Shown here: positions 5,857 through 61,061 of the stretch, piece by piece
Position numbering within the stretch: the stretch's first letter is position 1
How the letters are laid out: each line of letters begins with the position of its first letter
NCBI GenBank assembly: GCA_964466635.1
Contig: CAYXNG010000001.1
Coordinates: 42,958 to 106,957, forward strand
Reading direction: 5' to 3'
DNA: 64,000 bases
Origin: an uncultured Candidatus Peribacteria bacterium
Lineage (GTDB): Bacteria > Patescibacteriota > Gracilibacteria > Peribacterales > Peribacteraceae
The notes under the pieces: generated by a model
Database searches by the model: none
Told to the model about the DNA's origin: nothing
Seen by the model: the letters and a program-made list of their open reading frames with translations, nothing else
Program-made: the position numbers and the translations under genes

Positions 5857-5931
5857 GCGGGTATAGTACAATGGCTAGTACGTCAGCCTTCCAAGCTGAA
5901 TATACGGGTTCGATCCCCGTTACCCGCTCCA
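5857..5931 (+). tRNA. tRNA-Gly(TCC)
   Basis: Hand-folded cloverleaf: acceptor GCGGGTA/TACCCGC, anticodon loop CTTCCAA, T-loop TTCGATC, encoded CCA. Confidence 0.9.
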
Positions 5932-7485
5932 TACTGTAGAAACAACCTCCGAACGCAGACTTTTGCCAGTCCCGACCATGCTTTTTGCTGGTTCGAACAT
6001 AGCGATTTCCTTTGCATATCTTTTTTTAACCTCCTTAAGTACAGAAGGTACAAATAGTGGATCGTAATTAAGGTTTCTCCCCTGTATTTTCCAGTTCGAA
6101 CCGATGCCGCTTACAACAGCACGCTTTTGTTCGGGAGAGCCGCACGTAAGGATGTGCTGTGCATTGAGAATGAGATCGAGACTATCACTGATATTGGCAT
6201 TGGATGTCTGGCGTTCTTTTCTGGCCGTTTCTAGGTCTTCCTGAGCCGACTTCTGTTCGACTCTCAACTGATTCAGTCTTCTCTTCATGAGAGCGCGTGT
6301 ATCGGGATCTGATTCCTCTGCAATATTTTCTTCAATGGTCGTAATTTTCTTGGAAAGAACAGATAAATGCTGCTGTAGCTGTTCCTCTTTTATCGTTTCT
6401 TTAGTAGAAGCCCCCATTTGCTCAAGCTGTCGTATACCAAAGCGAATGATCTCCTCAGGGATCATATACGATTCAGCTTCTGCCATGATTTTCGTCACAA
6501 GAGCGTCAGCTGAAAGTGGCTTTTCGTTGCAGCGGATCGCACGTTTTCGGTGGGCGCAGCGGTAGTAATCAAAATCCTTTGTGATGTTCAGTGATTTAAT
6601 GTGCTTTGTCTTCCGCTCAGCAGTTATACAAGCATCACAGCCGCCGCAACGGAAAAGCCCCTTGAGAGGAAAGTTGAGGATGCGGTCACGCGTCCCTTTG
6701 CCATCCTTGAGAAATGACTGCGCCTGTTCAAACTCGGTCTGAGTAATCATCGGCTGATGACTCCCAACATGTAGCTCTCCCCTCCAACGGAACAGGCCGC
6801 AGTAAAAAGGATTTTGAAAGAGCGCGTGAAAAGTGGAAAAGGCCAGAAGCTTTCCATTTCTGTAGATCGGGCAATGCTCCTGCATATGTCGGTACAGCTG
6901 CATGGTGGAACATTGTTCATCGAGTAGCTTTCTCCATAAAGATTGGATGATCGGAAAAAGAACAGGATCAGGAAGAATGCGCTTCTGACCTTTTAATGCC
7001 TCGACTTCATTACGATAACCCATCGGGGCTTTGCAGGGCATCCACCCTTTGTCTGTCTTGCTAGTCATGCCTCGCTTCACATCGGTACTGAGCTTGCGTA
7101 CATAGTCCGTGGAGCGTCCTGTTTCAACGGAGAGCAGGATTGAGCTGTCATCGGGGTAATACGTGCGCTCAGGTGTAATGATCGCTTGGATGATGCTCTT
7201 CTGAAGCATCCACATGAGTTCGCCGGAATCTTTAGGGTTCCGGCTCAGGCGGTCAATGTTCCAACAAAGGATTACATGCGCTTCACCCCGCTTGATACGC
7301 TCGATCATGGACATGAATCCAATACGCCCAACGTCCTTTGCAGATTTCTGATCCTCGATTATATCCACGATCTCACATCCTCGATCTCTCCCTATACGAT
7401 GCAGCGCATTTATCTGATCGGGAATTGACTGGATTTGCCGCGATTTATCCTCGGTAGATTTACGAGCGTAGAGGAAGCACCTCAT
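5920..7485 (-). CDS. large serine recombinase/integrase
   Basis: 521 aa. It has an N-terminal resolvase catalytic domain (YARKSTEDKSRQ...DRLSRN), a recombinase domain, a Cys-rich zinc-ribbon (CGGCDACI...YYRCAH) and a coiled-coil tail. Confidence 0.9.
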   Translation of the reverse strand: MRCFLYARKSTEDKSRQIQSIPDQINALHRIGRDRGCEIVDIIEDQKSAKDVGRIGFMSMIERIKRGEAHVILCWNIDRLSRNPKDSGELMWMLQKSIIQAIITPERTYYPDDSSILLSVETGRSTDYVRKLSTDVKRGMTSKTDKGWMPCKAPMGYRNEVEALKGQKRILPDPVLFPIIQSLWRKLLDEQCSTMQLYRHMQEHCPIYRNGKLLAFSTFHALFQNPFYCGLFRWRGELHVGSHQPMITQTEFEQAQSFLKDGKGTRDRILNFPLKGLFRCGGCDACITAERKTKHIKSLNITKDFDYYRCAHRKRAIRCNEKPLSADALVTKIMAEAESYMIPEEIIRFGIRQLEQMGASTKETIKEEQLQQHLSVLSKKITTIEENIAEESDPDTRALMKRRLNQLRVEQKSAQEDLETARKERQTSNANISDSLDLILNAQHILTCGSPEQKRAVVSGIGSNWKIQGRNLNYDPLFVPSVLKEVKKRYAKEIAMFEPAKSMVGTGKSLRSEVVSTVWSG

Positions 7486-8542
7486 AGGGGGATAAGGGTA
7501 GCTGAGGAACTAACATGAAAACAGCTCGATGAGTTCGAACCTGTTCCCAGTAGGGGTATGGCGTTTGATCAGCCGAATAAAGCAAAAGAACTTGGAGAGG
7601 ATCAACGCCCATGCGAAATAATGTCTCGCTGCGAGTGATGAACTGCTTTATGTGCGGTATCCTCTCATGTTTCAATTTTGCAGCTGCCAATTCTTCAGGA
7701 TGGAGCATCCGACCTGTTTTTTTGGCTATGGTGAGCCGTTCGATTTTACTGAAATCCAAACCTTTAAGCGGATGAAAATATGTCCCCTGTTCATTCATGC
7801 AGAGGGACGCGAAATACTGCTGAAGAACCTCCACTCCTAAAGAGTCACCGTTGATACGTGATTCCTCATAACGAATGACGATCTCTGGCGTAATGCCCAT
7901 TTGCTTGATGGTTTTTGTGTGCAGCTCTGCCTCAATTCTGGTTACCGTTTCTTCATCTAGGTAATGTGAAAACAGCAAAAATTTCTCTTTCTTGTACGAA
8001 TCGGCTTTCTTGTCATACACCCTGATTAAATACTTTTTGTTACCTTTTTTCATACCGAGATAGAACGATTCGATGTCGTCACCGTTGATGTACGGAATCT
8101 TCTTACGAAACTGCGTCTTATGCTTCTTCCACAGCTTCAATACAGGGACATTACAATCAAGAGCGATATCAACACGAGACAACGACAGGAACGGCAGATA
8201 CTGTGATGTGAACTGCAACAAACACTCTGACAATTCTTCGAAGTAGAAATACGAACCATCGAATAGGAACGTATACGGGACATGGTCGGCAATACCCATC
8301 CCCATGTTTTTTACCAAACAGAACACTCTGTAATGACCATGATTGAAATTCAGAATGCGCTCAGACTTCGTTTCGTTGTATGTCACAGTAAATGAATGAC
8401 CGAGGAATCCCACATTTAATTTCTGTGGTGAGTTTTCTGATAGACCTTCGAAAAGATACGCGAAAGAGTTACCACGGAAGGTTCCACTGAAGTTGTAGCG
8501 GATGCAGTCGAAGCCTAAGCGGAAAACTCGAATATCCATCAT
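7460..8542 (-). CDS. Rep_trans-type replication initiation protein
   Basis: 360 aa with Rep_trans-family (pT181 RepC-like) motifs: LSRVDIALDC, YLIRVYDKKADS and VTRIEAELHTK. Confidence 0.65.
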   Translation of the reverse strand: MMDIRVFRLGFDCIRYNFSGTFRGNSFAYLFEGLSENSPQKLNVGFLGHSFTVTYNETKSERILNFNHGHYRVFCLVKNMGMGIADHVPYTFLFDGSYFYFEELSECLLQFTSQYLPFLSLSRVDIALDCNVPVLKLWKKHKTQFRKKIPYINGDDIESFYLGMKKGNKKYLIRVYDKKADSYKKEKFLLFSHYLDEETVTRIEAELHTKTIKQMGITPEIVIRYEESRINGDSLGVEVLQQYFASLCMNEQGTYFHPLKGLDFSKIERLTIAKKTGRMLHPEELAAAKLKHERIPHIKQFITRSETLFRMGVDPLQVLLLYSADQTPYPYWEQVRTHRAVFMLVPQLPLSPYEVLPLRS

Positions 8543-13619: not shown

Positions 13620-13691
13620 CTGATAGCTGTTAGTTTTTAGCTTTTAGAAAACCATTGATTAGCCCTAAAAGCTATCAGCTAACAGCTATAA
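13618..13691. repeat. inverted pair of AGCT-heptamer arrays, (AGCTNNN)n
   Basis: Left arm agctgat agctgtt ag...agctttt ag; right arm ctaaaagct atcagct aacagct ataa. It sits between the convergent HIT and HAD genes and contains the HAD stop codon. Confidence 0.75.
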
Positions 13692-15879: not shown

Positions 15880-15950
15880 AGCTTTCAGCTTCTAGCTGTT
15901 AGCTTTTAGGCCTAAAACCCTCTTCTGACAGCTATAAGCTATCAGCTAAT
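15880..15950. repeat. inverted pair of AGCT-heptamer arrays
   Basis: Left arm agctttc agcttct agctgtt agctttt agg; right arm agctata agctatc agctaat; central palindrome ttttaggcctaaaa. Confidence 0.75.
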
Positions 15951-17290: not shown

Positions 17291-17428
17291 GTGTGTGTTT
17301 ATTCAGGAATCTCTTTAGTATAGCAGAAAGAGGCCAAAAACGCCATATGCAGGCAACCGAAGAAACGGAAGAATCCGACGATTTGAGGGTATTTCCTCGG
17401 TTTCGTCGGATTCTTCGGAATCCTCTTT

Positions 17429-21849: not shown

Positions 21850-21947
21850 CCGTATTCTGGCAGGAGATGTATGGTTTTGCGCTCGCGTAAGCGTATAATT
21901 GTTATATTGTTCCATTGTTCCACTGCGAAGCAGTTGCAGTTTGGTAA

Positions 21948-21970
21948 ACAATTTAGCAATTTAGCAATTT
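21948..21970. repeat. AT-rich 8-nt tandem repeat (aatttagc)x3
   Basis: Sequence acaatttagcaatttagcaattt, immediately upstream of the dus start. Confidence 0.7.
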
Positions 21971-21974
21971 CGGT

Positions 21975-23003
21975 ATGGCTTTTTCTTGGACCACAACGCC
22001 GCGCCCCATCATCGCGCTCGCCCCCATGGCGGGCGTAACCGATGCGTCTTATCGCCAGCTGATCAAGCGTGTGGAGCCGCGGACTATCGTCTACACCGAA
22101 TTTTTGAGTACCGATGCCCTCGCATTCAAAGGAAAGAAGACAATGCAGATGATGGCGTTTGACGCGAGTGTCGAGCGACCGTTCATCGTGCAGGTGTTCG
22201 GACATGATCCGGAACATTTTCTGGAGGCTGCCAAAATCATCGAACAGTGCGGAGTCGACGGGATCGATATCAACATGGGCTGTCCCGCTGCAAAGGTGGT
22301 TTCCAGCTGTCATGGGGCTGCACTCATTCGCAAACCGGAGCTTGCCGCGGAGCTTGTTTACGCGACAAAAAAAGCAGTGCAGATTCCCGTCAGCGTGAAG
22401 ACGCGTCTTGGCTGGGAAACATCGGATACGCTGATTCCTTTTTGTCAGGCACTGGAAGCTGCGGGGGCAGAAGCATTCGCGATCCATGGCCGAACCTATC
22501 ACGAGAAATTCACCGGCAAAGCGAACTGGGAACCGATCTACGAATTGAAGAAACATGTGAAGGTCCCGGTGATTGGCAATGGTGATATCGGCTGTGCGCA
22601 GGACGCGCTCGATAAAATCGGGAATCTGGACGGGGTGATGGTCGGTCGCGGCACCTTTGGTAACCCGTGGGTGATGAAAGATGTGGCGGACGCATTGGCC
22701 GCTAGCCACCAGCCGCTAGCCACTAGCCATGAAACAAATCTAGAAGCCAGAAGCCAGAAGCCAGAGGCTCCTTCGATCTATGTTCCGACTGTGCACAAAC
22801 TGACCTTTGAGGAAAAAATCCCTTTCATCCTCGAGCATTGCGAATTGGCCGTTCGTACTAAAGGAGAGAAGAGGGGAATGCTGGAAATGCGACGGCACTT
22901 AGCAAGCTACGTCAAAGGGTTTGATGGCGCATCGGAGTTGCGGCAGAAGCTTGTGAGAGTGGAGACGATTACTGAGGTTGCGGAGATTCTGCAGGCTGCT
23001 TAA
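21975..23003 (+). CDS. dus: tRNA-dihydrouridine synthase
   Basis: The motifs LAPMAGVTDASYR ... INMGCPA ... GRGTFGNPW are present. The gene contains the in-frame repeat cassette at 22701-22769. Confidence 0.85.
   Translation: MAFSWTTTPRPIIALAPMAGVTDASYRQLIKRVEPRTIVYTEFLSTDALAFKGKKTMQMMAFDASVERPFIVQVFGHDPEHFLEAAKIIEQCGVDGIDINMGCPAAKVVSSCHGAALIRKPELAAELVYATKKAVQIPVSVKTRLGWETSDTLIPFCQALEAAGAEAFAIHGRTYHEKFTGKANWEPIYELKKHVKVPVIGNGDIGCAQDALDKIGNLDGVMVGRGTFGNPWVMKDVADALAASHQPLATSHETNLEARSQKPEAPSIYVPTVHKLTFEEKIPFILEHCELAVRTKGEKRGMLEMRRHLASYVKGFDGASELRQKLVRVETITEVAEILQAA
22701..22769 (+). repeat. in-frame bipartite heptamer-repeat cassette inside dus
   Basis: Array gctagcc accagcc gctagcc actagcc, a spacer, then agaagcc agaagcc agaagcc agaggct. 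It encodes SHQPLATSHETNLEARSQKPEA. Confidence 0.8.
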
Positions 23004-25577: not shown

Positions 25578-25637
25578 AGTGCCGCGTAGGGTAGGGACGA
25601 AGCGTGTGGATGTAAAGAGAAAACGGGCGAACGATTG

Positions 25638-25678
25638 TTAAATTGCTAAATTGCTAACAATATAACAATATAACAATT
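25638..25678. repeat. AT-rich 8-nt tandem repeats, (aaattgct)x2 + (aacaatat)x3
   Basis: Sequence ttaaattgctaaattgctaacaatataacaatataacaatt, upstream of rplK. Confidence 0.7.
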
Positions 25679-27409: not shown

Positions 27410-27558
27410 AGCTTGTTAGCTAGTTAGGCGATTAGCTGGTTAGCTTTTATGCGGAATATTTTTTTAAATGTACTACATGATTTTTAGCAGTTTGAGCTCT
27501 ACCACATACAAAAAAATCCTTGTAGAAGCTAACGAGCCAACTAGCTAACCAGCTACTT
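27410..27558. repeat. inverted pair of AGCT 8-mer arrays flanking an AT-rich spacer
   Basis: Left arm agcttgtt agctagtt aggcgatt agctggtt agctttt (27410-27448). Right arm agctaacg agccaact agctaacc agctactt (27527-27558). Confidence 0.7.
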
Positions 27559-27913: not shown

Positions 27914-29053
27914 TCACGAAGCCATCAACTGGTCTATTTTTGTATGCAATTGTTGTTCGAACTCGGATCGACGGAACTTTGATGCCTGCTTTTGGCAGTT
28001 CTGTTCTGAGTATTTTTTGTGATCAAAATCCTGCAGAGTTTTCATCAATGAATCGACGGTTTGATCATCGAAGAAGGTTCCGGTCTCGTTATCAATGATG
28101 GTCTCAAGTGCGCCGCCACCGCGGTACGCGATGACCGGTGTGCCACACGCCATCGACTCAACAGGGACGAGGCCGAAGTCTTCCAGTCCAGGGAAGATGG
28201 TTGCCTGAGCGCCTGCATAGAGTGCGCGCAGTTCGTCCGTCGATCGGTATCCGAGAAACTCAATTGTTGGTCCGGCCATCCGTTGCAGTCGTCCGCGATC
28301 AGATCCGTCACCGACAATCTTCAGAGGAAGAGTGAGTTTGTTGCACGCCTCGATCACAAGATCGATCTGTTTGTAGCGGGCGAGAGTGGAGACGATCAGA
28401 AAGTACGGAGCCTCTAGTCTCTGGCCTCTAGCCTCTGGCTGTATGTTGTTACTCGTGGCTCGTGGCTCGTGGCTCGTGGCTACAAAAAACGAATTATCAA
28501 TTGGTGGATAGACGACATCACTCCTACGTTCCCAGTACAGTTCGATGCGGCGTTGGACTTCCTTCGATGCAGCCAGAATCATGTCTGCGCGTTGTGCGGC
28601 TTCGGTGTCCCAGACGCGGAGTGTGTGAAATGTCTGACTGAGATACCACCGTGCGAGTGGATTCGCTCTCTTTTGCACCGCATGTGTCTGGTCCCACAGG
28701 TAGCGAGCAGGGGAGTGAACGTAGCTGAGGTGTTTCGGCTTGCTGTTGGTGATAATGCCGTGGGCAAATGCCGAGCTGGAGCTGATCACCAGATCAAACT
28801 CGCTGAAATCCCACGACTCGACCGCTCGCGGAAACTTGTTCAGGTACAGATGATGGTTATGACCGAGGAAGGAGGAGCTAGGACCTAGCGTTGCTGTTCG
28901 TACGCGTTCGCTGGGAAACCAATCGCCCAACTTCTTTTTGTCGTAGAGCAGCGTGTAAATCGGCGCATCCGGGAACATATCGGCCAGAATGCGCAGGACG
29001 TTTTCGGCTCCGCCTTTCATCGTCAAAAGCTCATGAACTAACGCTACCTTCAT
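27914..29053 (-). CDS. glycosyltransferase family 4 (GT-B)
   Basis: The C-terminal domain carries EDFGLVPVESMACGTPVIAY. The gene contains the in-frame repeat cassette at 28409-28480. Confidence 0.85.
   Translation of the reverse strand: MKVALVHELLTMKGGAENVLRILADMFPDAPIYTLLYDKKKLGDWFPSERVRTATLGPSSSFLGHNHHLYLNKFPRAVESWDFSEFDLVISSSSAFAHGIITNSKPKHLSYVHSPARYLWDQTHAVQKRANPLARWYLSQTFHTLRVWDTEAAQRADMILAASKEVQRRIELYWERRSDVVYPPIDNSFFVATSHEPRATSNNIQPEARGQRLEAPYFLIVSTLARYKQIDLVIEACNKLTLPLKIVGDGSDRGRLQRMAGPTIEFLGYRSTDELRALYAGAQATIFPGLEDFGLVPVESMACGTPVIAYRGGGALETIIDNETGTFFDDQTVDSLMKTLQDFDHKKYSEQNCQKQASKFRRSEFEQQLHTKIDQLMAS
28409..28480 (-). repeat. in-frame bipartite heptamer-repeat cassette inside the GT4 gene
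   Basis: Sense strand: (agccacg)x4, spacer agtaacaacatac, then agccaga ggctaga ggccaga gactaga. It encodes ATSHEPRATSNNIQPEARGQRLEA. Confidence 0.8.
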
Positions 29054-32559: not shown

Positions 32560-33033
32560 ATGCCCGTGTTCCGTTTTGCTCCCATTGGCAGCTTCAAACG
32601 CCTAGCAGCAGGGCTCCTCTTGCTTGGTGTCTTACTGCCGATCATCGCATTCGCACAGGGAAATCCTCCGCAGAATCCTCAAAACCCGCCACAGAACAAC
32701 CAGCCGTTAGTCATCCCGCCGGCAAATCTCCCTTTGCTGCAGCCCCTCGATGACGATACGGGGTTTCTGACAATGACCAACGGCAATGACGCCCTGGAAG
32801 CGTTCATGGATTACTTCAACCTTAGCTGGCCGTGGATCATCGGAACGGCGGCAGGTGTCGCGGTACTGCAGGCGCTGATCGGCGGTATCCAGATCATGTT
32901 GTCCGGCTCAAACTCCGGCGCGCGCGAAGAAGGAAAAAGCAGATTGATGTGGGCTCTTGCGGGACTGCTGATGATCGGACTCTCGGGCATGTTCCTCGAA
33001 ATTCTGAACCCTCTCTACTTCCGCCAGGCATGA
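32560..33033 (+). CDS. T4SS pilin-like protein (TrbC/VirB2 family) with Pro/Gln-rich N-region
   Basis: Start ATG at 32560, after tatact and ggagag; the ORF-track start overlaps the tRNA. It has a signal peptide, PPQNPQNPPQNNQP repeats, then two TM helices joined by QIMLSGSNSGAREEGKSRLMW. Confidence 0.6.
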   Translation: MPVFRFAPIGSFKRLAAGLLLLGVLLPIIAFAQGNPPQNPQNPPQNNQPLVIPPANLPLLQPLDDDTGFLTMTNGNDALEAFMDYFNLSWPWIIGTAAGVAVLQALIGGIQIMLSGSNSGAREEGKSRLMWALAGLLMIGLSGMFLEILNPLYFRQA

Positions 33034-33587
33034 GTACGTCTTTTCTGGCACAGGCGGCGGTGCCCGATACACCTTGTACCGGACTGATCGGTTGCGGTGC
33101 GGCGGGTTCCAATGTGATTCTCAACAACATGCCGTCACTTGCGACGCTGATGCTGATTATCGCGGGTTCGACCGCGGTCTTCTTCATCGTCCTCGCGGGC
33201 TTCCGCATGGTTGCCGCGCTCGGCGATGAGGGGCAGATTGCGGATCAGAAGAAAGCGGTCCTTAACGTCCTGCTCGGTTTGGTGGCGGTCATCCTCTCGC
33301 AGGCGATTGTCGGATTCATCGGCACGCAGAACTACGGTCAGGGTAGCAACCCGCTCGACCTCTTCCTCAACTTGGTCGGGTTCGGTATTTCGATCCTGTT
33401 GACGGTCTTCAATGCGGCGGCCGTGATAGCCATCATCTATGCCGGCATCCGCATGGTCTATGCACAGGGCAAATCCGACGAATTCGCAAAGGGTAAAACG
33501 ATCATCACCTGGACCATCGGCGGCGCTGTGATCGCCAATCTTGCGAACGCACTTGTTCAGGCTCTTGCTGCCATCTTCGGTGTATGA
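33030..33587 (+). CDS. T4SS pilin-like protein, tandem two-module form
   Basis: ATGA overlap with the upstream gene. It carries two copies of the helix-loop-helix pilin module (FRMVAALGDEGQIADQKKAVL and YAGIRMVYAQGKSDEFAKGKTIITW). Confidence 0.6.
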   Translation: MSTSFLAQAAVPDTPCTGLIGCGAAGSNVILNNMPSLATLMLIIAGSTAVFFIVLAGFRMVAALGDEGQIADQKKAVLNVLLGLVAVILSQAIVGFIGTQNYGQGSNPLDLFLNLVGFGISILLTVFNAAAVIAIIYAGIRMVYAQGKSDEFAKGKTIITWTIGGAVIANLANALVQALAAIFGV

Positions 33588-38696: not shown

Positions 38697-40595
38697 TTAG
38701 GCCTTCTCTGCCTCGTTCTTCATCACCTCACTCGGCTTCGTCGTAATCAGCTTCGCTTCGTCCGGGCTGGCGATCACTTCCACCGCGACGTGCTTGTAGC
38801 CGGCAAAGAGAATGCCTTGTCCGACTGCGCTGTTGAGCAGCACATACTTCTCACCATCGGTCAGATAGAAGAGCTTCTGCAGGTTGTCGACGGTTGTCGG
38901 CGACTGCTTCAACAGCACCTGCAACGATGAGTTGGTGATAATCGGTTTGCCGAAGGGGGATTCAACAAAGTCCTCCACGTCTTGTGTAATGGTTGTGACG
39001 CCCAGGTAATACTTGCGGGCGCGCTTCACAATGCCGTACAGGAAGCGTGCGGAGTCCTCGTGCTGCATCAGGTTCCAGGCTTCGTCGATGACGAGGATGC
39101 GCTTCTTCAGCTCTGCGCGGATGCGGTTCCACAGGAAGTTCAGCACGATGTAGATTGCAATCGGGCGAAGCTGCTCCTCCAAGTCGCGAATCTGGAAGAC
39201 GACCATCTGGTTGTCCAGGTCCACGTTCGTCTTCTGATCGAATAGTCCGGCAAAGCTTCCCTGCGTGTATTTCTGAAGAATTTTCGCCATGTTCTCACCT
39301 CCTTCGGTGGTCATTAGCACGTCGACCAGCTGTCCGAGAGTCGGTACTTCACCGGCGCTCAGATCGGTCGCCTGTAGCGTAATGCCGTTCAGTGCGTACG
39401 TATCCAAAATCGCTTTATCGAGAATGCCGTCCTCAGACGGTGTGATCGGTCCGAGCATGAGACGGAGCAGGCCGTGCAGGTTGATGACCGCAGCGCGCAG
39501 CACTTCTCCCGGAGCGGCATCATCGCCGCGGATAGCCTTGGGTAGATCAAACGGGTTGATGCGGAAGGGGCTCTGGATGGAGAGGGGAATGAACGATCCG
39601 CCAACTGCTTCACAGAGGTTGGTGTATTCGTTTTCCGGGTCAATCACCATCACCTCTGTTCCGAGCATCAGGTGACGCAGGAGCTCAAGCTTGGCCGTGA
39701 ACGATTTACCCGCACCGGAGGTTGCGAAGATGTTACTGTTCGCGTTCGGCAGATCGAAGCGATCGAAGATGATCAGTGAATCGTTGTGACGGTTGATGCC
39801 GTACAGGATGCCGTGGTCATCCGTCAGGTCGCTGGAGCTGAAGGGGAAGCTTGCAGCCAACGGGCTGGTGTTCATGTTACGGTTGATCTCGATCTCATCG
39901 AGACAGATCGGCAACGTCGACGTCCATGCATGCTCCATCTGGAACATCGCCGGTTTGGTCAGCACCAGCTTTCCGCCGAGCACCGATTCGATATCGGTCT
40001 GCACTTTCTTCAAGCGGTCTTCGTCCTCGGCATACACTGTAATGTACATGCCGAACTGGAAGAGTTTTTCCTGACCGCGAGCAAGAAGATCACGCAACTC
40101 TTCGGCATCTTGCAACGCAGCTTCAAGCGACGGATCGCGGACGATGCCGCGCTGCTCTAGCATACGGATGGATGAACGCAGCTCCGCGACTTTCTTGCGC
40201 AGCATTTTCATGATCGCCCTGTTCGAGCTCGGGTAGATGAACTGCGCAATGTCCATGGTCGCATCCTGGTTGACGGTCTGGGCCAGCCAGTTCGGGAAAA
40301 TGAAGTTCGGCCAGTTATACGCGTACAGCGTTCGAGCGTATTGGTCGTTGATGATCATCTGCGAGTTCTGCACCTGGATGCCTGCGGGCGCAATCAGATC
40401 GAGCATTTTCTGCAGTCCCTGTTCGTAGCGCTTCACCGATTCCAGTTCTTCCGGCGTCAGCGCTTCGTCGCCCGAATGTTGCTCAAGCATCTCTTCTGTT
40501 TTCTTGGTCAGACCGAGCAATTCGTCCATTGCCTCCAGCAGAGGGTGCTGAAGGGGGAGTCCGGGGGCCGTTTCTGGGGGTTTTTGTTCGGACAT
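38697..40595 (-). CDS. VirB4/TraC-type T4SS ATPase
   Basis: 632 aa with Walker A ATSGAGKSF, Walker B LVIDEAW, and an N-domain of the VirB4 type. Confidence 0.8.
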   Translation of the reverse strand: MSEQKPPETAPGLPLQHPLLEAMDELLGLTKKTEEMLEQHSGDEALTPEELESVKRYEQGLQKMLDLIAPAGIQVQNSQMIINDQYARTLYAYNWPNFIFPNWLAQTVNQDATMDIAQFIYPSSNRAIMKMLRKKVAELRSSIRMLEQRGIVRDPSLEAALQDAEELRDLLARGQEKLFQFGMYITVYAEDEDRLKKVQTDIESVLGGKLVLTKPAMFQMEHAWTSTLPICLDEIEINRNMNTSPLAASFPFSSSDLTDDHGILYGINRHNDSLIIFDRFDLPNANSNIFATSGAGKSFTAKLELLRHLMLGTEVMVIDPENEYTNLCEAVGGSFIPLSIQSPFRINPFDLPKAIRGDDAAPGEVLRAAVINLHGLLRLMLGPITPSEDGILDKAILDTYALNGITLQATDLSAGEVPTLGQLVDVLMTTEGGENMAKILQKYTQGSFAGLFDQKTNVDLDNQMVVFQIRDLEEQLRPIAIYIVLNFLWNRIRAELKKRILVIDEAWNLMQHEDSARFLYGIVKRARKYYLGVTTITQDVEDFVESPFGKPIITNSSLQVLLKQSPTTVDNLQKLFYLTDGEKYVLLNSAVGQGILFAGYKHVAVEVIASPDEAKLITTKPSEVMKNEAEKA

Positions 40596-45385: not shown

Positions 45386-46483
45386 TTAAAACCCGCGTTT
45401 CCATTTGCGGATAAACTCAAATGCCCGCGTGAAGCGATACGATGACGTCAGCGGCAGGTCGATACAATGGACGAGTGGCAACGGCTTTCCGCCGAAGCCG
45501 GTCTTGAACGTGGTGACGCCGGCGAACGGATGGCTCTTGTCGATAATCACCTCCTCACCGGTTTCCAGCATCTTGCGCGGGGCGATCCCCCAGAAGTTGT
45601 AGATGCTGTCACCGCGCTTGAGCGCATCGGAAATTGCCGTCCACTGCAGCAGATAACTGGCGGGGATCTTTGCGTACTTGTGGGTGCTGGCTCCATGGTG
45701 ATAGCTGGTCACACCGCCGTAGGTCATGTGGACTGATGCTGCGACCGGTTCATTCTGATAGCGTGCGATGTAGACGATCGCCTGACCTTTGGGTGCGAAA
45801 TGTTTCACTTGTGCGCGAATGTAGCTCTCGCGGTAGGGGACAAAGTGATGACGCTTGTACGTCTCTTCCTGCAGCTTGAAGTAGATGTCGAGGTCCGCGT
45901 CCGGGTTGTTCGAGGCTTCGACCGTCACTCCTTCGCGCTCGGCACGGCCGATTAAATTGCGAGTCGTCTTACGCATGTCTGCTTTAATCGATTCCTCCGT
46001 GCGTGCCTCTAACTGCGCATCAAACCGATCGTCGATCCATCGATCGACGCTGCGAAGCGCGATGTACCACGTGTACTCCGAGAGCAGGTGCAGCGGGGAC
46101 GGCATTGATTCTGCTGGCGGCCATCCGATCTGTGAAGCCATCGATTCCGGCAAGAACGGGCTGACGCGGATGAAGCCGCAATTGTGATCCCGCGCTACAT
46201 CTTTTACTGCTGCCAGTAAGGAGCTAGTGGCGAGAGGCTGGTGGCCAGAGGCCGTGATCGGTCCATATTGCACCATGAGATGACGGCCGCGTCGTGCCGG
46301 CACGACAATCGCCTGACAGATGCCGGTGATGATTCCATCTTCTCGCATCTCTAAGCGCACCGGTTCCTGTCCGATGTCGCGGTAGACTTCTCCCATCGTC
46401 CAGCTTTGGAGGAACGGGCTGAAGCGTTGCAACTGCAGGAACTGTTCCCAGGAGGCCTGATCGGTAGCGGGCTGGATGTTCAT
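45386..46483 (-). CDS. FemAB-family peptidoglycan interpeptide-bridge aminoacyltransferase
   Basis: 365 aa. The segment YHHGASTHKYAKIPASYLLQWTAISDALKRGDSIYNFWG fits the FemABX pattern. It contains the in-frame repeat at 46219-46252 (SGHQPLATSS). Confidence 0.75.
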   Translation of the reverse strand: MNIQPATDQASWEQFLQLQRFSPFLQSWTMGEVYRDIGQEPVRLEMREDGIITGICQAIVVPARRGRHLMVQYGPITASGHQPLATSSLLAAVKDVARDHNCGFIRVSPFLPESMASQIGWPPAESMPSPLHLLSEYTWYIALRSVDRWIDDRFDAQLEARTEESIKADMRKTTRNLIGRAEREGVTVEASNNPDADLDIYFKLQEETYKRHHFVPYRESYIRAQVKHFAPKGQAIVYIARYQNEPVAASVHMTYGGVTSYHHGASTHKYAKIPASYLLQWTAISDALKRGDSIYNFWGIAPRKMLETGEEVIIDKSHPFAGVTTFKTGFGGKPLPLVHCIDLPLTSSYRFTRAFEFIRKWKRGF

Positions 46484-46510
46484 TGCAAGAAGAATAGCAG
46501 ATGGCAGATA

Positions 46511-47848
46511 TCAGATATCAGTACGATGTGTATTGCTGACATCTGACTTCTGAGATCGTAATAATGGATCAAGGAGTTCAACCAGCTTCTGTGCCTGCTC
46601 CATCGACGTGTCCGGGTTTGTCGGCAGACAGAGAATCTGCTGTCCTGCCATCTCAGCCTTCGGATCATCGCCGTCTTTGTAGCCGCATGCCGCATCATCG
46701 GCATTGGCAGGGCAGATCACACAGCCGGTCCAGCCATCATGGAGATGAATGTTGTGTGTGCGCAACTTCTGACGAATGTTTTCTGCACCCGGCGTGAAGA
46801 GCGGGAATTTCTGCAGCGGGAAGTTGGGAATGACGCCCAGAAGGAGCGGCCAGTTCCGGCGCACTGCTTCGTTGAAGTAATAGTCCGTCAGTGTGCGGCG
46901 ATGTGCGTTGATCTGCTCCAGTCGCTTCCACTGCTGCAGAGCCAGCGCCGCACAGGCGTTGGGCATGCGATGGAGAGTCGTGCCCATCTTTCCTGCCTTC
47001 TCATTTTTCGTGACAATGGGAGCAAGCAGATGGAGCTTGCCGAAGACAGCGAGCAGGATTTTCCCAATGCCTATGCCATACAACGGCTTCGCGATGGCAT
47101 AGAGGATGGGGTACTGCAGCCAGCGTTTGATGTGCCAGAGACCGAATGGTGTTGCATCGTTTTCTAGCTTCTGTAGGTCATGATAGATGTCCGATCGTTT
47201 ACAGATGACCGCGCCACCGGTGACACCGGAGATCGCCTTGTCCCGTCCGAAGCTGAAGAAGAGCAGATCTCCATATTGGCCAATCTCCTCCGGCCCCTGC
47301 TTGTCAGGAATAATGTGCGCGCAATCTTCAATCAGAATGAGTGAGTGGCGGTCGCACAGCGTGCGCAATTCTTTGGTGAACGCAGGAATACCAAATGTGT
47401 GCTGGCAGATAATTGCACGGGTGTTTGGGGTAATCAGCTTTTCCACTTCGAGTACATCGAGGTTGAGGGTGTCTTGTTCGATGTCCGCGAAGATCGGTGT
47501 CATGCCCGCGGCAATAATCGCATTCGGCACGACGATGCAGGTGTAGCCCTGGACAATCACTTCTTCGTCCTTGCGGGACTTCAATGACTTGAGAATTGCA
47601 AGCAGTGCTTCACGGCCCGATCCGAACAGATGAGCCTGACCGCCAAAGTGCTCTGCCAGTGCCTGCTTCAGTAGATCTTTCTCCGGTCCTTCACGCCAGA
47701 CCCACGGCATGAACGCGAGTTTCAGTGCTTTGCGGATCTGCTTTCTGTCCGCCAGCGGCGCGAAGGTGTGGTGGGTTGGACGAAGCACAGGAGCTAGGAG
47801 CTGGGAAGTAGACGATGGATTGTCGAGAGGGGCATACGACCGACGCAC
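46511..47848 (-). CDS. DegT/DnrJ/EryC1/StrS-family PLP-dependent aminotransferase
   Basis: The motifs GSGREALLAILKSL and FFSFGRDKAISG (PLP lysine) are present. The start is uncertain (47848 or 47710); the N-terminus overlaps the upstream gene and a heptamer repeat. Confidence 0.75.
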   Translation of the reverse strand: MRRSYAPLDNPSSTSQLLAPVLRPTHHTFAPLADRKQIRKALKLAFMPWVWREGPEKDLLKQALAEHFGGQAHLFGSGREALLAILKSLKSRKDEEVIVQGYTCIVVPNAIIAAGMTPIFADIEQDTLNLDVLEVEKLITPNTRAIICQHTFGIPAFTKELRTLCDRHSLILIEDCAHIIPDKQGPEEIGQYGDLLFFSFGRDKAISGVTGGAVICKRSDIYHDLQKLENDATPFGLWHIKRWLQYPILYAIAKPLYGIGIGKILLAVFGKLHLLAPIVTKNEKAGKMGTTLHRMPNACAALALQQWKRLEQINAHRRTLTDYYFNEAVRRNWPLLLGVIPNFPLQKFPLFTPGAENIRQKLRTHNIHLHDGWTGCVICPANADDAACGYKDGDDPKAEMAGQQILCLPTNPDTSMEQAQKLVELLDPLLRSQKSDVSNTHRTDI

Positions 47849-49290
47849 AGCAGGACGGATCGTGCGGCGACACGCTGTGTGTGGGCGGTGAGAATTTCGA
47901 CCGGTTTCCCGAATGTCTGAGCGAAGATGTCTGACCCGTGTGGATCAGTGAAGATCACGCGGTCGACGGTGCTCGATGCCTTTGCGCCAAGTTCCCGGAG
48001 GAATCTTTCTTCATCGGGACCGGTTTCCTGTAGACCGCTGGTCAGCAGCACACGGGGGCTTTCGGTTCGAGTCGATGCCCAATCGAGAGCGGCATGGAAA
48101 CTCAGCGGACTGATGTTGTAGGTGTCATCAAGCATCGTCACGCCGCGTTCGGTTTTGACCGTGAACGTATGTGCCTGAGGTTGGAAGCTCTTTAATAACT
48201 CTTTGATGCGATCCACTTTGATGCCCAGATGACGTGCGACAGCAACGGCGAGTGCAACGTTGTAGTCGTTGTGGCGGCCTTCGAGAGAGTGTGAGAGGTT
48301 AGTTGTATCTGAGGCGATGGTGACAGGGCACGATGCACGTTTAGCGAGTTCGGCACATCCGTCGTTATCGCCATAGAAGAATGCATGTCCGTCTTTTGGC
48401 AGCGCTTCTATCAACTCACCATTTGCATCAATAATGTTCTGTTCCGACCCAAACAATGCCAAGTGGTCGGAGCCGAGAGCGGTCATCACGCCGATGGTCG
48501 GCTGCGCAATACGGCAGAGGAGAGCGATCTCACCCTTTCTATAGGCACCCATTTCAATGACGAAAAGCTTCGAGCTGCGAGCTTCGGGCTGCGTGCTTTC
48601 TTGGCGCTTCTTGTCCTCGTAGCTCGAAGCTGGCTGCGATAGCAGCCATTGCGCCACTCCCATCTCGGTATTCACATGCGCCGGAGTGACGAGCGGTTTC
48701 AGATCCTGCGTCAGATGCGCGATCAATTCTTTCACGGTTGTCTTACCAACGCTGCCGGCAATGCCGATTACCGTGATGTCTTTTAGGGTTGATCGCAGCT
48801 GTGCAGCGCGGTCCATCACACGCTTCTTCAGGATGAGGTCGATCGGTCGCCAGAGCAGCCATGATGCAAGAACAATCAGGGGTTGGACAATGGCGATCAG
48901 CGGATACCCGATTGGCAGTGTCCGCAGAGAGAGGATGACGATGACGTTGATGACGATCGCTGTCCCGCCCAATGCCATCGCTTTGCTGGTCCATTGGGGC
49001 ACGCGTTGCTTGTGCAGCACAATCTGCGCTACAGAGAGCCCTGCCAGCAGCATCATTGCACCAATGACCGAACTAGCCGTAGGCAGCAGGCCGATTGCGA
49101 CGAGTCCGATGAGAACGAGTACCGGGCGTAGACGGCCGACTAACTGGCTCATCCAGCCATCACGTCGCAGATGCTCCTGGAGACGGTCTAAACGCCATTC
49201 CTTCTGCTGAAAGAGGGCGGCAAACGTCAAAAGAGGGGAGATGGCCGCAATGAGGCTCAGGCCGATAACAAGGGCAAAAACAGCTGCCAT
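47794..49290 (-). CDS. Mur ligase (MurF-like) fused to an N-terminal polytopic membrane domain
   Basis: About 170 aa with about 5 TM helices, followed by VIGIAGSVGKTTVKELIAHL (the Mur ligase P-loop) and the central and C-terminal Mur ligase domains. It contains a repeat-derived insert at 48564-48647. Confidence 0.7.
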   Translation of the reverse strand: MAAVFALVIGLSLIAAISPLLTFAALFQQKEWRLDRLQEHLRRDGWMSQLVGRLRPVLVLIGLVAIGLLPTASSVIGAMMLLAGLSVAQIVLHKQRVPQWTSKAMALGGTAIVINVIVILSLRTLPIGYPLIAIVQPLIVLASWLLWRPIDLILKKRVMDRAAQLRSTLKDITVIGIAGSVGKTTVKELIAHLTQDLKPLVTPAHVNTEMGVAQWLLSQPASSYEDKKRQESTQPEARSSKLFVIEMGAYRKGEIALLCRIAQPTIGVMTALGSDHLALFGSEQNIIDANGELIEALPKDGHAFFYGDNDGCAELAKRASCPVTIASDTTNLSHSLEGRHNDYNVALAVAVARHLGIKVDRIKELLKSFQPQAHTFTVKTERGVTMLDDTYNISPLSFHAALDWASTRTESPRVLLTSGLQETGPDEERFLRELGAKASSTVDRVIFTDPHGSDIFAQTFGKPVEILTAHTQRVAARSVLLCVGRMPLSTIHRLLPSS

Positions 49291-49483: not shown

Positions 49484-50218
49484 TTAAAGGGACGAACGGA
49501 TAACGGCTGCGATCTCCGTCGCTTTATCACGATGGACGCGATGACGCACACCCTGATACAGGTGTAGCCGACTGTCGGCTATGCCTTTGTGCATGACATA
49601 TGCATCGCTGACCGGCGTCATGCCGTCCTCGGTTCCCCAGAAAATATCGGTCGGCGTTTTGATGAACGGGAGAATCGGGCGCAGGTCCTCGTGGACAACC
49701 CGGCTCATCGTATCGCGCATGATGGGCGATGCTTTTTCGTAATCGTGCACGCGGACAAGTTTGTACAGGAGCTTCTTGGCAACCGGCTGCAGCTGTTTGA
49801 GGCCGGGAATCGCGAGTAAGAACTTGCCGGTCTTCGCGAGCATCAATCCAAACATCCGTTTGAAGTGTCGTGGATGACGAATACCCGCCGCAGCACAGAG
49901 ATAGAGATGTTTGATAGGGAGTGATCCGCGTGCTGCAAGCTTGAGCCCGATGCGACCGCCATGAGAATGACCTAAGAGATGTAAAGCTTCTGGCCTCTGG
50001 CCTCTGGCCTCTAGATAGTGCTCAACCCAGTCAGCGTAGTCATCTACTGTCCATGGCGTCTTCGGTTCCGGCTCATCGCCAAAGCCCGGGAGATCCGGTG
50101 TCAGAATCTCGATATCGGTGCCTTTGAGTGCTTCTCGGAGCTCGGTAAACGATTCCTTGGAACCGCCCCAACCGTGCAAACAGAGCAGTATGGGCTTCAT
50201 AGGGCTAGTGTACAGCAA
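49484..50218 (-). CDS. alpha/beta-fold hydrolase
   Basis: The motifs LCLHGWGGSKESF and the nucleophile elbow GHSHGG are present. It contains the in-frame heptamer insert at 49985-50014 (LEARGQRPEAL). Confidence 0.8.
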   Translation of the reverse strand: MLYTSPMKPILLCLHGWGGSKESFTELREALKGTDIEILTPDLPGFGDEPEPKTPWTVDDYADWVEHYLEARGQRPEALHLLGHSHGGRIGLKLAARGSLPIKHLYLCAAAGIRHPRHFKRMFGLMLAKTGKFLLAIPGLKQLQPVAKKLLYKLVRVHDYEKASPIMRDTMSRVVHEDLRPILPFIKTPTDIFWGTEDGMTPVSDAYVMHKGIADSRLHLYQGVRHRVHRDKATEIAAVIRSSL

Positions 50219-52028: not shown

Positions 52029-52095
52029 AACAATTTAGCAATGTAACAATGTGGCCATTGATCTACTGTTCTATTGCTACATTGTTAAATTGTTC
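52029..52095. repeat. inverted AT-rich 8-mer arrays (caatttag / acaatgta modules)
   Basis: Left arm aacaatttagcaatgtaacaatgtgg; right arm ctattgctacattgttaaattgttc. Confidence 0.7.
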
Positions 52096-52119: not shown

Positions 52120-52779
52120 ATGAAGCGTTTTCTTCCAGTCATCATCGCTGCTGTCGCTATCGGCGGATCCATCGTGTACGGCATGACGCGTGAGTACCAG
52201 AATCCCGATCCTAATCACACGCACGCAGACTTTGCGGTGTGGGTGAACGGACAACTGCTCGATTTCACCGATCCGCGCTACATGAGCGAGGCCTATGACC
52301 CGGACAACGGTCAGGAGATCCGCGTCGATCCGATGCGGAAGTATCTCCATTTGCATGATGACATCGGAACGGTCGTTCATCGTCACAAGCCTGGTCTGAC
52401 ACTCGGTGAATTCATGGCCTCTATTGGCAATCCGATGGATGGACGGTGCATTACGCTCGATGAAGCGCAGTACGCATCACTGGATGCAGGATGGAAGGAG
52501 GATTTCGCCATCCAGCCACAGCTCTGCGACAACGGAAAATTCCATTGGACAATGGTGGTGAATGAACAGGTGGTTCCGTTTAACTCAGATTTTGTCTTTA
52601 ACGACGAAGATCAGATTCTCCTCAGCTACAGTGCGAGCGATACGGCATGGCAGGATCAGTGGGATGACATGACGAACGATGCCTGTCTCTTCAGCAAAAC
52701 CTGTCCATGGCGCGGTGATCCTCCTGCGGAAAACTGTATTGCGGACCCCGCTGTGCCCTGTGTTGCACCTGAGAATTAA
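52120..52779 (+). CDS. hypothetical membrane-anchored exported protein (His- and Cys-containing)
   Basis: 219 aa with an N-terminal TM helix, HTHADF and HLHDD..VVHRH motifs, and several Cys in the C-terminal part. No family named. Confidence 0.5.
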   Translation: MKRFLPVIIAAVAIGGSIVYGMTREYQNPDPNHTHADFAVWVNGQLLDFTDPRYMSEAYDPDNGQEIRVDPMRKYLHLHDDIGTVVHRHKPGLTLGEFMASIGNPMDGRCITLDEAQYASLDAGWKEDFAIQPQLCDNGKFHWTMVVNEQVVPFNSDFVFNDEDQILLSYSASDTAWQDQWDDMTNDACLFSKTCPWRGDPPAENCIADPAVPCVAPEN

Positions 52780-52855
52780 AAATTGAAAATGAAAAATGGA
52801 AAATGAGACGATTTTTCCTTCAAAAATTTTCAATTATCAATTATCAATTTTCCAT
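52778..52855. repeat. inverted AT-rich heptamer arrays (ATTGNNN / CAATNNN)
   Basis: Left arm aaaattgaaaatgaaaaatggaaaatgag; right arm aaaattttcaattatcaattatcaattttccatt. The same module occurs in frame inside murD (55113-55144). Confidence 0.7.
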
Positions 52856-52869
52856 TACCATAGCCATAT

Positions 52870-53361: not shown

Positions 53362-53939
53362 GAGCTCAGTGCCTGAGATGCAATCAGCATCGTGAAGATG
53401 CCGATGGTGTTAAAGCCGAAACAGATAGCGGCGAATGTGCGTGGCCGCAGTTCGGTGTATCCACTCAGCAATGTGACACCAAGCTCATCGGGCAGGGGGG
53501 AGGCAATCAGGATGCCGGCGATGGACCAGGCGGTGTACTGGCGGATTCGCTCGGGGACAGTCTCATGATGGAACCGGTCACGGATCCAGCGGATCACGGC
53601 CGCGCGCTTGAGCCTGCGGAATTCATCCATGAAGGAGAACCGGACGAATTCGAAGATCGTCATATCAGACACCATCGCACCGAGACCTGCAACCACTGCG
53701 CCAAGTACCGGATGAACGGTGTCGGCCATCCCGAGGAAAATTGCGATGGCGAACGGGGTCGTGAATCCGAAGCTGAAGAGCAGTCCGCCGAAGAACATTG
53801 AAATATATCCGTATCCGTTCAGCAATTCCGGCAGAAGGTCGAAAAACCCCTGTGCGTAGAGGATATATGCCAGCAAAAACGAGCAGGCGAGGAGGCTTAA
53901 TTTGGGGTATTGAAGGCGAGTTTTTATCTGGTATTTCAC
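53358..53939 (-). CDS. hypothetical polytopic membrane protein
   Basis: 193 aa with about 5 TM helices. There is a 4-nt overlap with the convergent grpE stop. Confidence 0.45.
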   Translation of the reverse strand: MKYQIKTRLQYPKLSLLACSFLLAYILYAQGFFDLLPELLNGYGYISMFFGGLLFSFGFTTPFAIAIFLGMADTVHPVLGAVVAGLGAMVSDMTIFEFVRFSFMDEFRRLKRAAVIRWIRDRFHHETVPERIRQYTAWSIAGILIASPLPDELGVTLLSGYTELRPRTFAAICFGFNTIGIFTMLIASQALSS

Positions 53940-53962
53940 CCTATTATTTTAACACAAAATGC

Positions 53963-58862: not shown

Positions 58863-58890
58863 AGCTAACAGCTAAAAGCTATAAGCTGTA
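58863..58890. repeat. AGCT-heptamer array (single arm)
   Basis: Sequence agctaac agctaaa agctata agctgta, immediately upstream of the NUDIX gene's GTG start. Confidence 0.75.
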
Positions 58891-61031: not shown

Positions 61032-61061
61032 AGCTTATAGCTGTTAGCTGTTAGCTTCTAG
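61032..61061. repeat. AGCT-heptamer array (single arm)
   Basis: Sequence agcttat agctgtt agctgtt agcttct ag, in the divergent region upstream of ruvC. Confidence 0.75.

Follow-up and report, generated by a model that had tools for sequence, protein, structure and literature searches.

Heptamers are the commonest long simple repeats in bacteria, and polymerase slippage has been proposed as their origin (Mrazek 2007, as cited in PMC4679880 and PMC4692102). The STRRs (for short tandemly repeated repetitive) of cyanobacteria consist of tandem 7-bp units that form hairpins in intergenic spacers such as hupS-hupL, with unknown function (PMC2670836). The heptamers of Xanthomonas (GGGAATC) and Nostoc (GGGGAYT) are dispersed, prefer about four units, include 70-75 convergent (inverted) pairs capable of stem-loop formation, and, where close relatives are compared at one intergenic site, differ in length and in sequence (Rehm et al. 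2015, PMC4692102). Geobacter metallireducens carries four-heptanucleotide elements (GGACCGG; MTYCTGA), with four to five tandem heptamers within and between genes (PMC2700814). As for the TAACTGA repeats of Beggiatoaceae and cyanobacteria, one strand has stops in all frames and the other gives the tolerated peptide LSVISYQ (PMC4679880). Here we describe heptamer arrays in a 64-kb stretch of the genome of an uncultured Candidatus Peribacteria bacterium (hereafter the window; 52.9% G+C; all coordinates are positions in it), where they form hairpins between genes and also lie in frame within dus (21975-23003, + strand) and six other, unrelated genes.

Rickettsia palindromic elements (RPEs) are palindromic, lie in frame in many unrelated genes and encode peptides compatible with the protein fold (PMC10969869). 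Repetitive extragenic palindromic (REP) sequences and REPINs are imperfect palindromes of 20-40 nt, abundant, mostly located after genes and grouped in genome-specific families (PMC3116915, PMC3733652). The tandem repeats of Borgs evolve fast, occur in intergenic regions and in open reading frames (ORFs), and add intrinsically disordered segments (PMC9879509). A previous, sequence-only reading of the window had likened the dus segment to RPEs and had proposed that a repeat cassette was inserted in frame, in variable linkers, in dus and at least six other genes. Our analysis indicates that the dus segment is one member of a genome-wide, mostly intergenic population of heptamer (sometimes octamer) hairpins, and not a discrete element.

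An array, a spacer and a second array were found in dus at the site given by that reading. The 5' arm (22697-22728, +) reads on the sense strand GGCCGCT, AGCCACC, AGCCGCT, AGCCACT and AGCC, that is, five RGCY-NNN units, and is absent from the closest relative, L001 (GCA_964623835.1), which is syntenic with the window at about 83% nucleotide identity. It is followed by a 13-nt hairpin loop (ATGAAACAAATCT; 22729-22741, +), unrelated to the loop of the sister cassette in the relative L002, and by a 3' arm (22742-22769, +) made of three AGAAGCC units and one AGAGGCT. The in-frame peptide of the cassette is AASHQPLATSHETNLEARSQKPEA.

The arrays of the other six genes have the window's minus strand as their sense strand. 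The GT4 cassette (28409-28481) has two arms and an 11-nt loop and covers residues ~192-215, in an inter-domain linker; the murF-like cassette (48566-48647), built of AGCTNCG units, is a near-perfect Watson-Crick palindrome; and the MurL array (56201-56260) comprises nine in-phase heptamers in one hairpin, directly before a GGGKDS motif. The FemAB-like gene carries an array of period 14 (46222-46253, peptide SGHQPLATSS), the alpha/beta hydrolase gene a single arm of AGCTTCT plus (GGCCTCT)3 (49985-50012, peptide LEARGQRPEA), and murD an array in a C-terminal variable loop (54070-54097, peptide TSGQKLEASG). Checking of the sense-strand readings confirmed that the seven sites exist and translate as had been described. 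The earlier account was nonetheless incomplete, having overlooked the inverted pairing of the arms, the intergenic AGCT-core kin described below, and two translated AATT-core heptamer arrays in the N-terminal part of murD (54996-55025, SQFSILNFQ, and 55113-55137, LIIDNGK; both on the minus strand). Pfam assigned the host genes to Dus, GT4, FemAB, alpha/beta hydrolase and two Mur ligases. The names Peregrinibacteria or Peribacteria are borne by the best matches of the Dus, MurD and MurL proteins, in line with the assignment of the window to this lineage. The gene previously named “PP-loop” does carry the GGGKDS motif, right behind its array, but was identified as MurL (PF26299/PF26298). It is paired with murD (53963-56676), an arrangement corresponding to the MurD2/MurL route (L-Glu ligase plus epimerase) and not to classical MurD, in agreement with the homologue names of the Joint Genome Institute (JGI).

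The frequency of these arrays is far above chance. The motif RGCYNNNRGCYNNNRGCY (RGCY, three units at 7-nt spacing) gave 33 matches in the window against 0.18 expected, with a maximum of one in 100 shuffles, and RGCY runs of at least three units numbered 15 against 0.23 expected, nine of the 15 lying inside exactly the seven listed genes. Tandem Repeats Finder detected 24 period-7 arrays, compared with 0.83 in Markov shuffles. As in the described heptanucleotide repeats, the 7-nt units stand in tandem, in about 3-14 copies. An assembly or sequencing artefact has nothing in its favour beyond the general fragility of repeats in short-read assemblies. Independent data supported the arrays: the Logan assembly of SRR15237806 is 100% identical to window positions 53929-55767, murD arrays included; a MurL protein identical to that of the window is also on record from Logan; and an exact match to L002's sister dus cassette is present in each of two further SRA runs. 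Moreover, every array keeps its reading frame open. Chance and artefact are ruled out by the shuffle statistics together with the independent assemblies, and we give them practically no weight.

The two dus arrays form an inverted pair, read on the antisense strand as (GGCTTCT)n - loop - (GGCTNGT)n. In the folds of the coding cassettes, helices reach ~6 bp and are interrupted by one mismatch per 7 nt, most clearly in dus. The hairpin is stronger on the antisense strand than on the sense strand in dus (−36.8 vs. −18.4 kcal/mol), GT4 (−26.8 vs. −16.6 kcal/mol), MurL (−42.7, z −6.5, vs. −21.3 kcal/mol) and the murF-like gene (−51.2 vs. −38.4 kcal/mol), because G-U pairs formed on the antisense strand correspond to A-C mismatches on the other. 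In antisense orientation, the coding units resemble the AGCT family with A-to-G changes (AGCT to GGCT or GGCC). Inverted pairs able to form a stem-loop were found at four of the seven coding sites and at most intergenic sites, the other three coding sites having a single or minimal arm only. The loops are mutually unrelated and the numbers of units unequal between sites, with no full-length consensus; the notion of a discrete cassette did not hold.

The C/A-rich strand is the sense strand in seven of seven genes, which bears out the previous claim that the arrays are in frame and in the same orientation. The T content of the sense strand is 4-11% in most arrays and 14-19% in the short murD and FemAB arrays. 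Such a T-poor strand contains no stops and encodes a hydrophilic peptide of Ala, Thr, Ser, His, Gln, Pro, Glu and Arg; the Kyte-Doolittle values of the sense frames range from −1.1 to −2.0 in the longer cassettes and are −0.86 and −0.36 in the short arrays of murD and FemAB, respectively. Open antisense frames also exist through the dus, GT4, MurL and hydrolase arrays, but these are rich in Trp, Leu and Phe, with Kyte-Doolittle values of +0.6 to +1.3. Hence, stop codons alone were rejected as the cause of the orientation, hydrophobicity being what differs, and the uniform orientation is better explained by selection for linkers that are soluble and disordered. The same selection also accounts for the stronger hairpin on the antisense strand. 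An orientation logic of this kind was described by MacGregor for the TAACTGA repeats (PMC4679880). Genic copies persist only where their length keeps the frame, where the T-poor, C/A-rich strand is the sense strand, and where they fall in a linker between domains or in a variable loop on the surface. Arrays at such sites are predicted to be read as disordered linker peptide, and peptides spanning SHQPLATSHETNLEARSQKPEA in metaproteomes would prove their translation.

We then asked how far the segments are insertions, comparing the window with L001 and, by block-wise alignment, with L005 (GCA_044228075.1, ~75% nucleotide identity). The dus gene of L001 has exactly 66 nt fewer at the cassette site, corresponding to 22 additional codons in the window. 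The site is empty in about 10 of 27 Peregrinibacteria orthologues, and the rest contain different inserts. More distantly, the span W232-F278 comprises 45 aa in the window Dus. The matches listed in a profile search of genome contigs comprised at least 5 Peregrinibacteria loci and 75 from other phyla, the latter serving as outgroup and control; in these 75 Dus proteins the span measures 18-20 aa in 74 and 31 in one. The prediction that distant orthologues would lack a homologous segment was thus supported. Residues 245-279 align opposite the 8 residues that link TIM barrel and helical domain in Thermotoga maritima Dus (1VHN), and an AlphaFold2 model (mean predicted local distance difference test score, pLDDT, 87) shows coil over residues 245-271, with means of 49-72 for ten-residue blocks. 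The GT4 array lies between two Pfam domains and adds about 15 codons (+45 nt), the segment being 13-15 residues longer than in six relatives, and the murF-like segment, in an internal loop of the middle domain, adds 12 residues relative to L005. These comparisons support the view that the dus, GT4 and murF-like segments are lineage-specific in-frame insertions.

For the hydrolase, murD, MurL and FemAB, the claim of insertion was not supported: the net length change relative to L005 is about zero, and the arrays add only 2-4 aa relative to PDB homologues. The MurL site is a loop, predicted as coil, that is hypervariable across the whole clade. A periodic sequence occupying a variable loop is therefore a better description of these four segments than an inserted cassette. 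The placement in variable linkers was upheld for dus, GT4 and MurL, with the qualification that the hydrolase, murD, MurL and FemAB arrays sit in variable loops that already existed. Other Peregrinibacteria show long low-complexity inserts in further loops of MurL (columns ~385-435 of alignment A3) and MurD (columns 145-165 of alignment A2), such as HPTTHHLQPT and SSPLTPALSPRERVAQSAGRG, which may be more translated repeat arrays.

The architecture recurs in intergenic regions, where the units have an AGCT core, pairing is Watson-Crick throughout and the hairpins fold on both strands (z −2.3 to −6.9). AGCT-core two-arm hairpins of the form TAGCTNN ... NNAGCTA are located at 13624-13688, between convergent genes (Watson-Crick on both strands, z about −6 to −7), and at 15880-15948, overlapping a stop codon; the values for the two range from about −3 to −7. 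The hairpin arms have units with four core nucleotides, either AGCT, which may relax to RGCY, or AATT, the latter also in heptamers at 52770-52857. In the octamer and CTGA families the core is not palindromic (for example ATTG/CAAT and CTGA/TCAG); octamer arrays of the ATTG/CAAT kind occur at 21898-21970, 25634-25677 and 52029-52094. Most two-arm hairpins lie directly 3' of stop codons, between convergent or co-directional genes according to our ORF calls. An Rfam scan returned seven tRNAs only, with no RNA family matching any array, and a terminator scan flagged one array (27415-27444); canonical GC-rich terminators are also present in the window.

A CTGA-type two-arm hairpin (ATATCAG / CTGACAT, 46494-46557) occupies the 3' end of a DegT gene upstream of FemAB. 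Its first arm (~46490-46524) is identical to that of L005 in 34 of 34 nt, and the second arm has few mismatches. The 15 C-terminal residues of the DegT-type aminotransferase (RSQKSDVSNTHRTDI) are encoded by this hairpin, which exceeds the neighbouring genes in conservation. Single-arm AGCT arrays were found upstream of gene starts at 58863-58887 (+) and 61032-61056 (−), the former being identical in 24 of 25 positions to the reverse complement of the latter. Both are kept in L005, although the flanking genes are only ~75% identical, and both contain TATAAG, compatible with a possible promoter or leader role. At 17355-17425, right behind a stop codon, the hairpin arms consist of 9-nt tandem units (AACCGAAGA ... 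TCCTCGGTT); the habit of forming periodic hairpins is therefore wider than 7- and 8-nt units.

The comparison of relatives revealed that individual sites turn over. Nearly all relatives examined have a different dus linker, with six different periodic elements in six relatives. The linker holds GCCACCA / CTGGAGG in L002, which is of the family of the window with another loop, TTCG / CGAA units in L008, GTACGAG / CTCGTAC in L012, a single arm of (GGAGAAT)4 in L208, and CGTTT / AAACG units of 7-8 nt in L209 and L210; L009 has a non-periodic GC-rich palindrome and L001 is empty. In the GT4 linker, both L001 (CTAAAAG, CTATCAG, GTAACAG) and L209, with (AGAAGCT)4, carry AGCT-core arrays. At the sites of four other genes, L005 carries heptamer arrays with other units, namely three ATTTCCG in FemAB, GGAGCGA in the murF-like gene, three GATCTCC in the hydrolase and the GGATCTA type in murD, and the array sites are equal in length to those of the window at three of these four. 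Between the hydrolase arrays (GGCCTCT vs. GATCTCC), the same three transitions occur in every unit (14 identities, 10 transitions and 2 transversions), which we read as concerted change without change of length. Many arrays are perfect even though the genomes are 17-25% diverged, and are therefore young or continually homogenised.

Among the matches listed, ORF-internal arrays of period 7 or 14 reached 15.9 per 100 kb of coding sequence in the 11 loci from Peregrinibacteria, a sevenfold enrichment over the 2.2 counted in 75 control loci; the corresponding non-coding densities were 90 and 24-30 per 100 kb. Arrays are few in L009-L011, which are phylum members of low or high GC content. More than 120 metagenome stretches contain the unit (AGARGCY)3; they come mostly from contigs of high GC content (median 60% G+C) in Ga-prefixed JGI metagenomes, most are intergenic, and several form inverted pairs. 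Given this wide occurrence in high-GC contigs, where inverted pairs are frequent, a clade-specific origin of the unit was rejected. One control locus, L013 (8500-13100; JAZLLX010000107.1, from an Acidaminococcaceae metagenome-assembled genome), has 15 period-7 arrays within 5 kb of its intergenic DNA, and a conserved core of ~20 nt (GGTAAnAtGTTCCTGTGATTA) is flanked by three or more of them. This array-core-array arrangement, in another phylum, is presumably akin to the “small dispersed repeats within heptamer repeats” of Nostoc.

How, then, do the arrays relate to the described systems? With STRRs they share tandem 7-nt units that form hairpins in spacers, but units and phylum are different. 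The STRR1-3 units are CCCCAGT and the like. An STRR reportedly lies inside a functional gene, that of RNase P RNA (Vioque 1997, as cited in PMC2858038). We found no description in the literature of STRRs as translated in-frame linkers of housekeeping enzymes, nor of repeats of this kind in Peregrinibacteria. The Xanthomonas and Nostoc heptamers are G-rich, form G-quadruplexes and are under-represented in ORFs, whereas the window arrays have a palindromic AGCT/RGCY core, no G-tracts and the ORF enrichment given above. The Geobacter and Beggiatoaceae repeats resemble ours in their orientation rule, and CTGA-type units also occur in the window (46494-46557), L001 and L002; the reports on them contain neither two-arm hairpins in linkers of conserved enzymes nor a comparison of orthologous sites showing repeated replacement. 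No unit of a described family (STRR1-3, GGGAATC, TAACTGA, GGACCGG) was matched by those of the window, which are AGCT/RGCY-NNN, AATT-NNN and CTGA-type.

The resemblance to RPEs noted previously holds for behaviour, with palindromic, in-frame arrays at permissive sites of unrelated genes, although clean insertion was seen in only three of seven genes. It fails for size and build: RPEs are ~100-150 bp long, with a full-length family consensus and a conserved peptide, and are not made of short tandem units, whereas the window arrays span 28-84 nt, are periodic, and have unrelated centres and varying numbers of units. Heptanucleotide repeat families, STRRs and the like, are the nearer relatives. 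REP sequences and REPINs are defined as extragenic, show no heptamer periodicity and are associated with RAYT transposases; nine RGCY and two AATT arrays of the window lie inside ORFs. Borg repeats are direct and belong to an archaeal extrachromosomal element, and their ORF units are always divisible by three, whereas the 7-nt unit of the window rotates the reading frame. Like described heptanucleotide repeats, the window arrays are mostly intergenic and vary in length and sequence site by site between relatives (window vs. L001 and L005). The class is thus STRR-like, enriched in this Peribacteria clade. What is new is the lineage and the unit family, the two-arm heptamer hairpins predicted to be translated as linkers in conserved enzymes, and the repeated occupation of a given loop by periodic elements that differ between relatives.

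Regarding origin, we lean, with some reserve, towards an STRR-like hairpin population that turns over in place under a selection filter, the coding subset being tolerated as linkers. Arrays would arise and turn over mainly in place, through replication slippage and intra-hairpin template switching, and their units would evolve in concert, with occasional copying of sequence between loci. Selection would then filter them, leaving in-frame, hydrophilic arrays located in loops or linkers, and permissive loops would thereby become hot spots with different periodic elements in different lineages. Several observations weigh against this explanation. Slippage is hard to reconcile with perfect arrays of 3-4 units in essential genes, because a 7-nt step shifts the frame. 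Loop length was constant within the two 90%-identity MurL clusters that were aligned, of six listed, where length differences reflected alternative starts or a gap elsewhere in the protein and not the loops; turnover is therefore not fast at the species level. Different genes of the same genome have more similar units than does the same gene in different genomes: RGCY-TCT / GGCT-NGT units are common to dus, GT4, MurL, hydrolase and murD in the window, and the hydrolase and FemAB units of L005 are alike (GATCTCC and GATTTCC). Near-identical stretches of 20-31 nt are also found at non-orthologous loci of different genomes. Judged from sequence comparison, these shared stretches and the likeness of units within a genome point to inter-locus copying or to a genome-specific template.

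A copying mechanism, be it a mobile element, ectopic conversion or a templated process, hence stays in play beside in-place turnover. One form of it, copies of a miniature mobile palindromic element similar to RPEs, REPINs or miniature inverted-repeat transposable elements, of which only in-frame, stop-free, loop-located insertions survive, is possible but rather unlikely. It would fit the occupation of dus in the window and L002 with an empty site in L001, the arm units common to seven genes of one genome where L005 uses others at the same sites, the near-identical 20- to 31-nt arrays at non-orthologous loci and in different genomes, and behaviour like that of RPEs (PMC10969869). It is at odds with the unrelated loops, the unequal arm lengths and the single arm at three sites, with the four of seven sites that show no net length change relative to a relative, and with the concerted transitions in the hydrolase, which look like in-place evolution. 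Neither defined termini nor target-site duplications were evident, the latter at the dus and GT4 junctions compared with L001, where the linker flanks differ, boundaries cannot be precisely placed and no systematic search was made. A Pfam scan of the 38 larger ORFs of the window, the rest of the genome being unseen, found no RAYT, IS200, other transposase or reverse transcriptase, and the sole recombinase was a large serine recombinase (5920-7485). A sequence-directed process (gene conversion from dispersed copies, a copying enzyme or templated repeat addition at breaks), rather than slippage, might instead rewrite loops and gene ends with a genome-specific unit. We consider this improbable; if true, the arrays would be very small elements of a new, self-propagating kind, common to several phyla, and new protein linkers would arise directly from them in reduced genomes.

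Little probability is likewise assigned to the arrays being kept for a function, either because the hairpin stops antisense transcription or marks DNA, or because the flexible linker itself is adaptive. The palindromic 4-mer cores do resemble methylation or restriction sites, most two-arm hairpins stand directly behind stop codons, some intergenic arrays outdo their flanking genes in conservation (the 34/34-nt arm of 46494-46557; 58863/61032), and a role in transcript stabilisation has been proposed for the STRR hairpins of cyanobacteria (PMC2670836). The consistently stronger hairpin on the antisense strand would also be in keeping with a function, but this bias follows automatically from the T-poor sense strand, G-U pairs being possible only on a G/T-rich strand. 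Moreover, close relatives have empty sites at no evident cost (dus in L001), sequences at a site are freely replaced, and the window has canonical GC-rich terminators as well. Finally, the arrays could be scars of templated repeat addition at DNA breaks, with both 3' ends receiving the same heptamer before being joined into array, filler and inverted array. Such scars would account for inverted arms with unrelated centres, unequal unit numbers, genome-specific units, the absence of any evident target duplication, and arrays that are young and perfect. Yet single-arm arrays exist, the arms of the coding cassettes differ when read toward the centre (AGCCACC vs. GGCTTCT), no enzyme candidate was seen, and we know of no bacterial precedent; we regard this origin as very improbable.

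Some neighbouring features deserve mention. Type IV secretion-like genes (pilin of the type IV secretion system, PrgI, TraC-like, TraG/VirB4-like ATPase) are located in the window at 32832-33587 and 38697-40595, and such genes stand upstream of dus in L001, L002 and L208-L210, in conserved synteny beside dus across these Peregrinibacteria. Near dus, L210 (GCA_016196295.1) has a 23S_rRNA_IVP / bAvd-like gene (7402-7761); proteins of this type are frequent companions of diversity-generating retroelements. The large serine recombinase of the window (5920-7485, −; Resolvase, Recombinase and Zn-ribbon domains) abuts a tRNA gene (5857-5928), and this region (5857-7485) is probably the edge of an integrated element.

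Repeats of 7 nt are normally excluded from genes, because a change of one unit shifts the frame. Here they stand in frame in dus, murD, MurL, a murF-like ligase and others, in a candidate phyla radiation (CPR) genome of roughly the 1.2-Mb class. The arrays inflate the loops of CPR proteins, and annotators and aligners may mistake them for low-complexity noise or assembly error. They provide comparable cases for asking how heptanucleotide repeats originated and spread in cyanobacteria, Xanthomonas, Geobacter and Beggiatoa, and how non-coding hairpin repeats become protein linkers or disordered segments.

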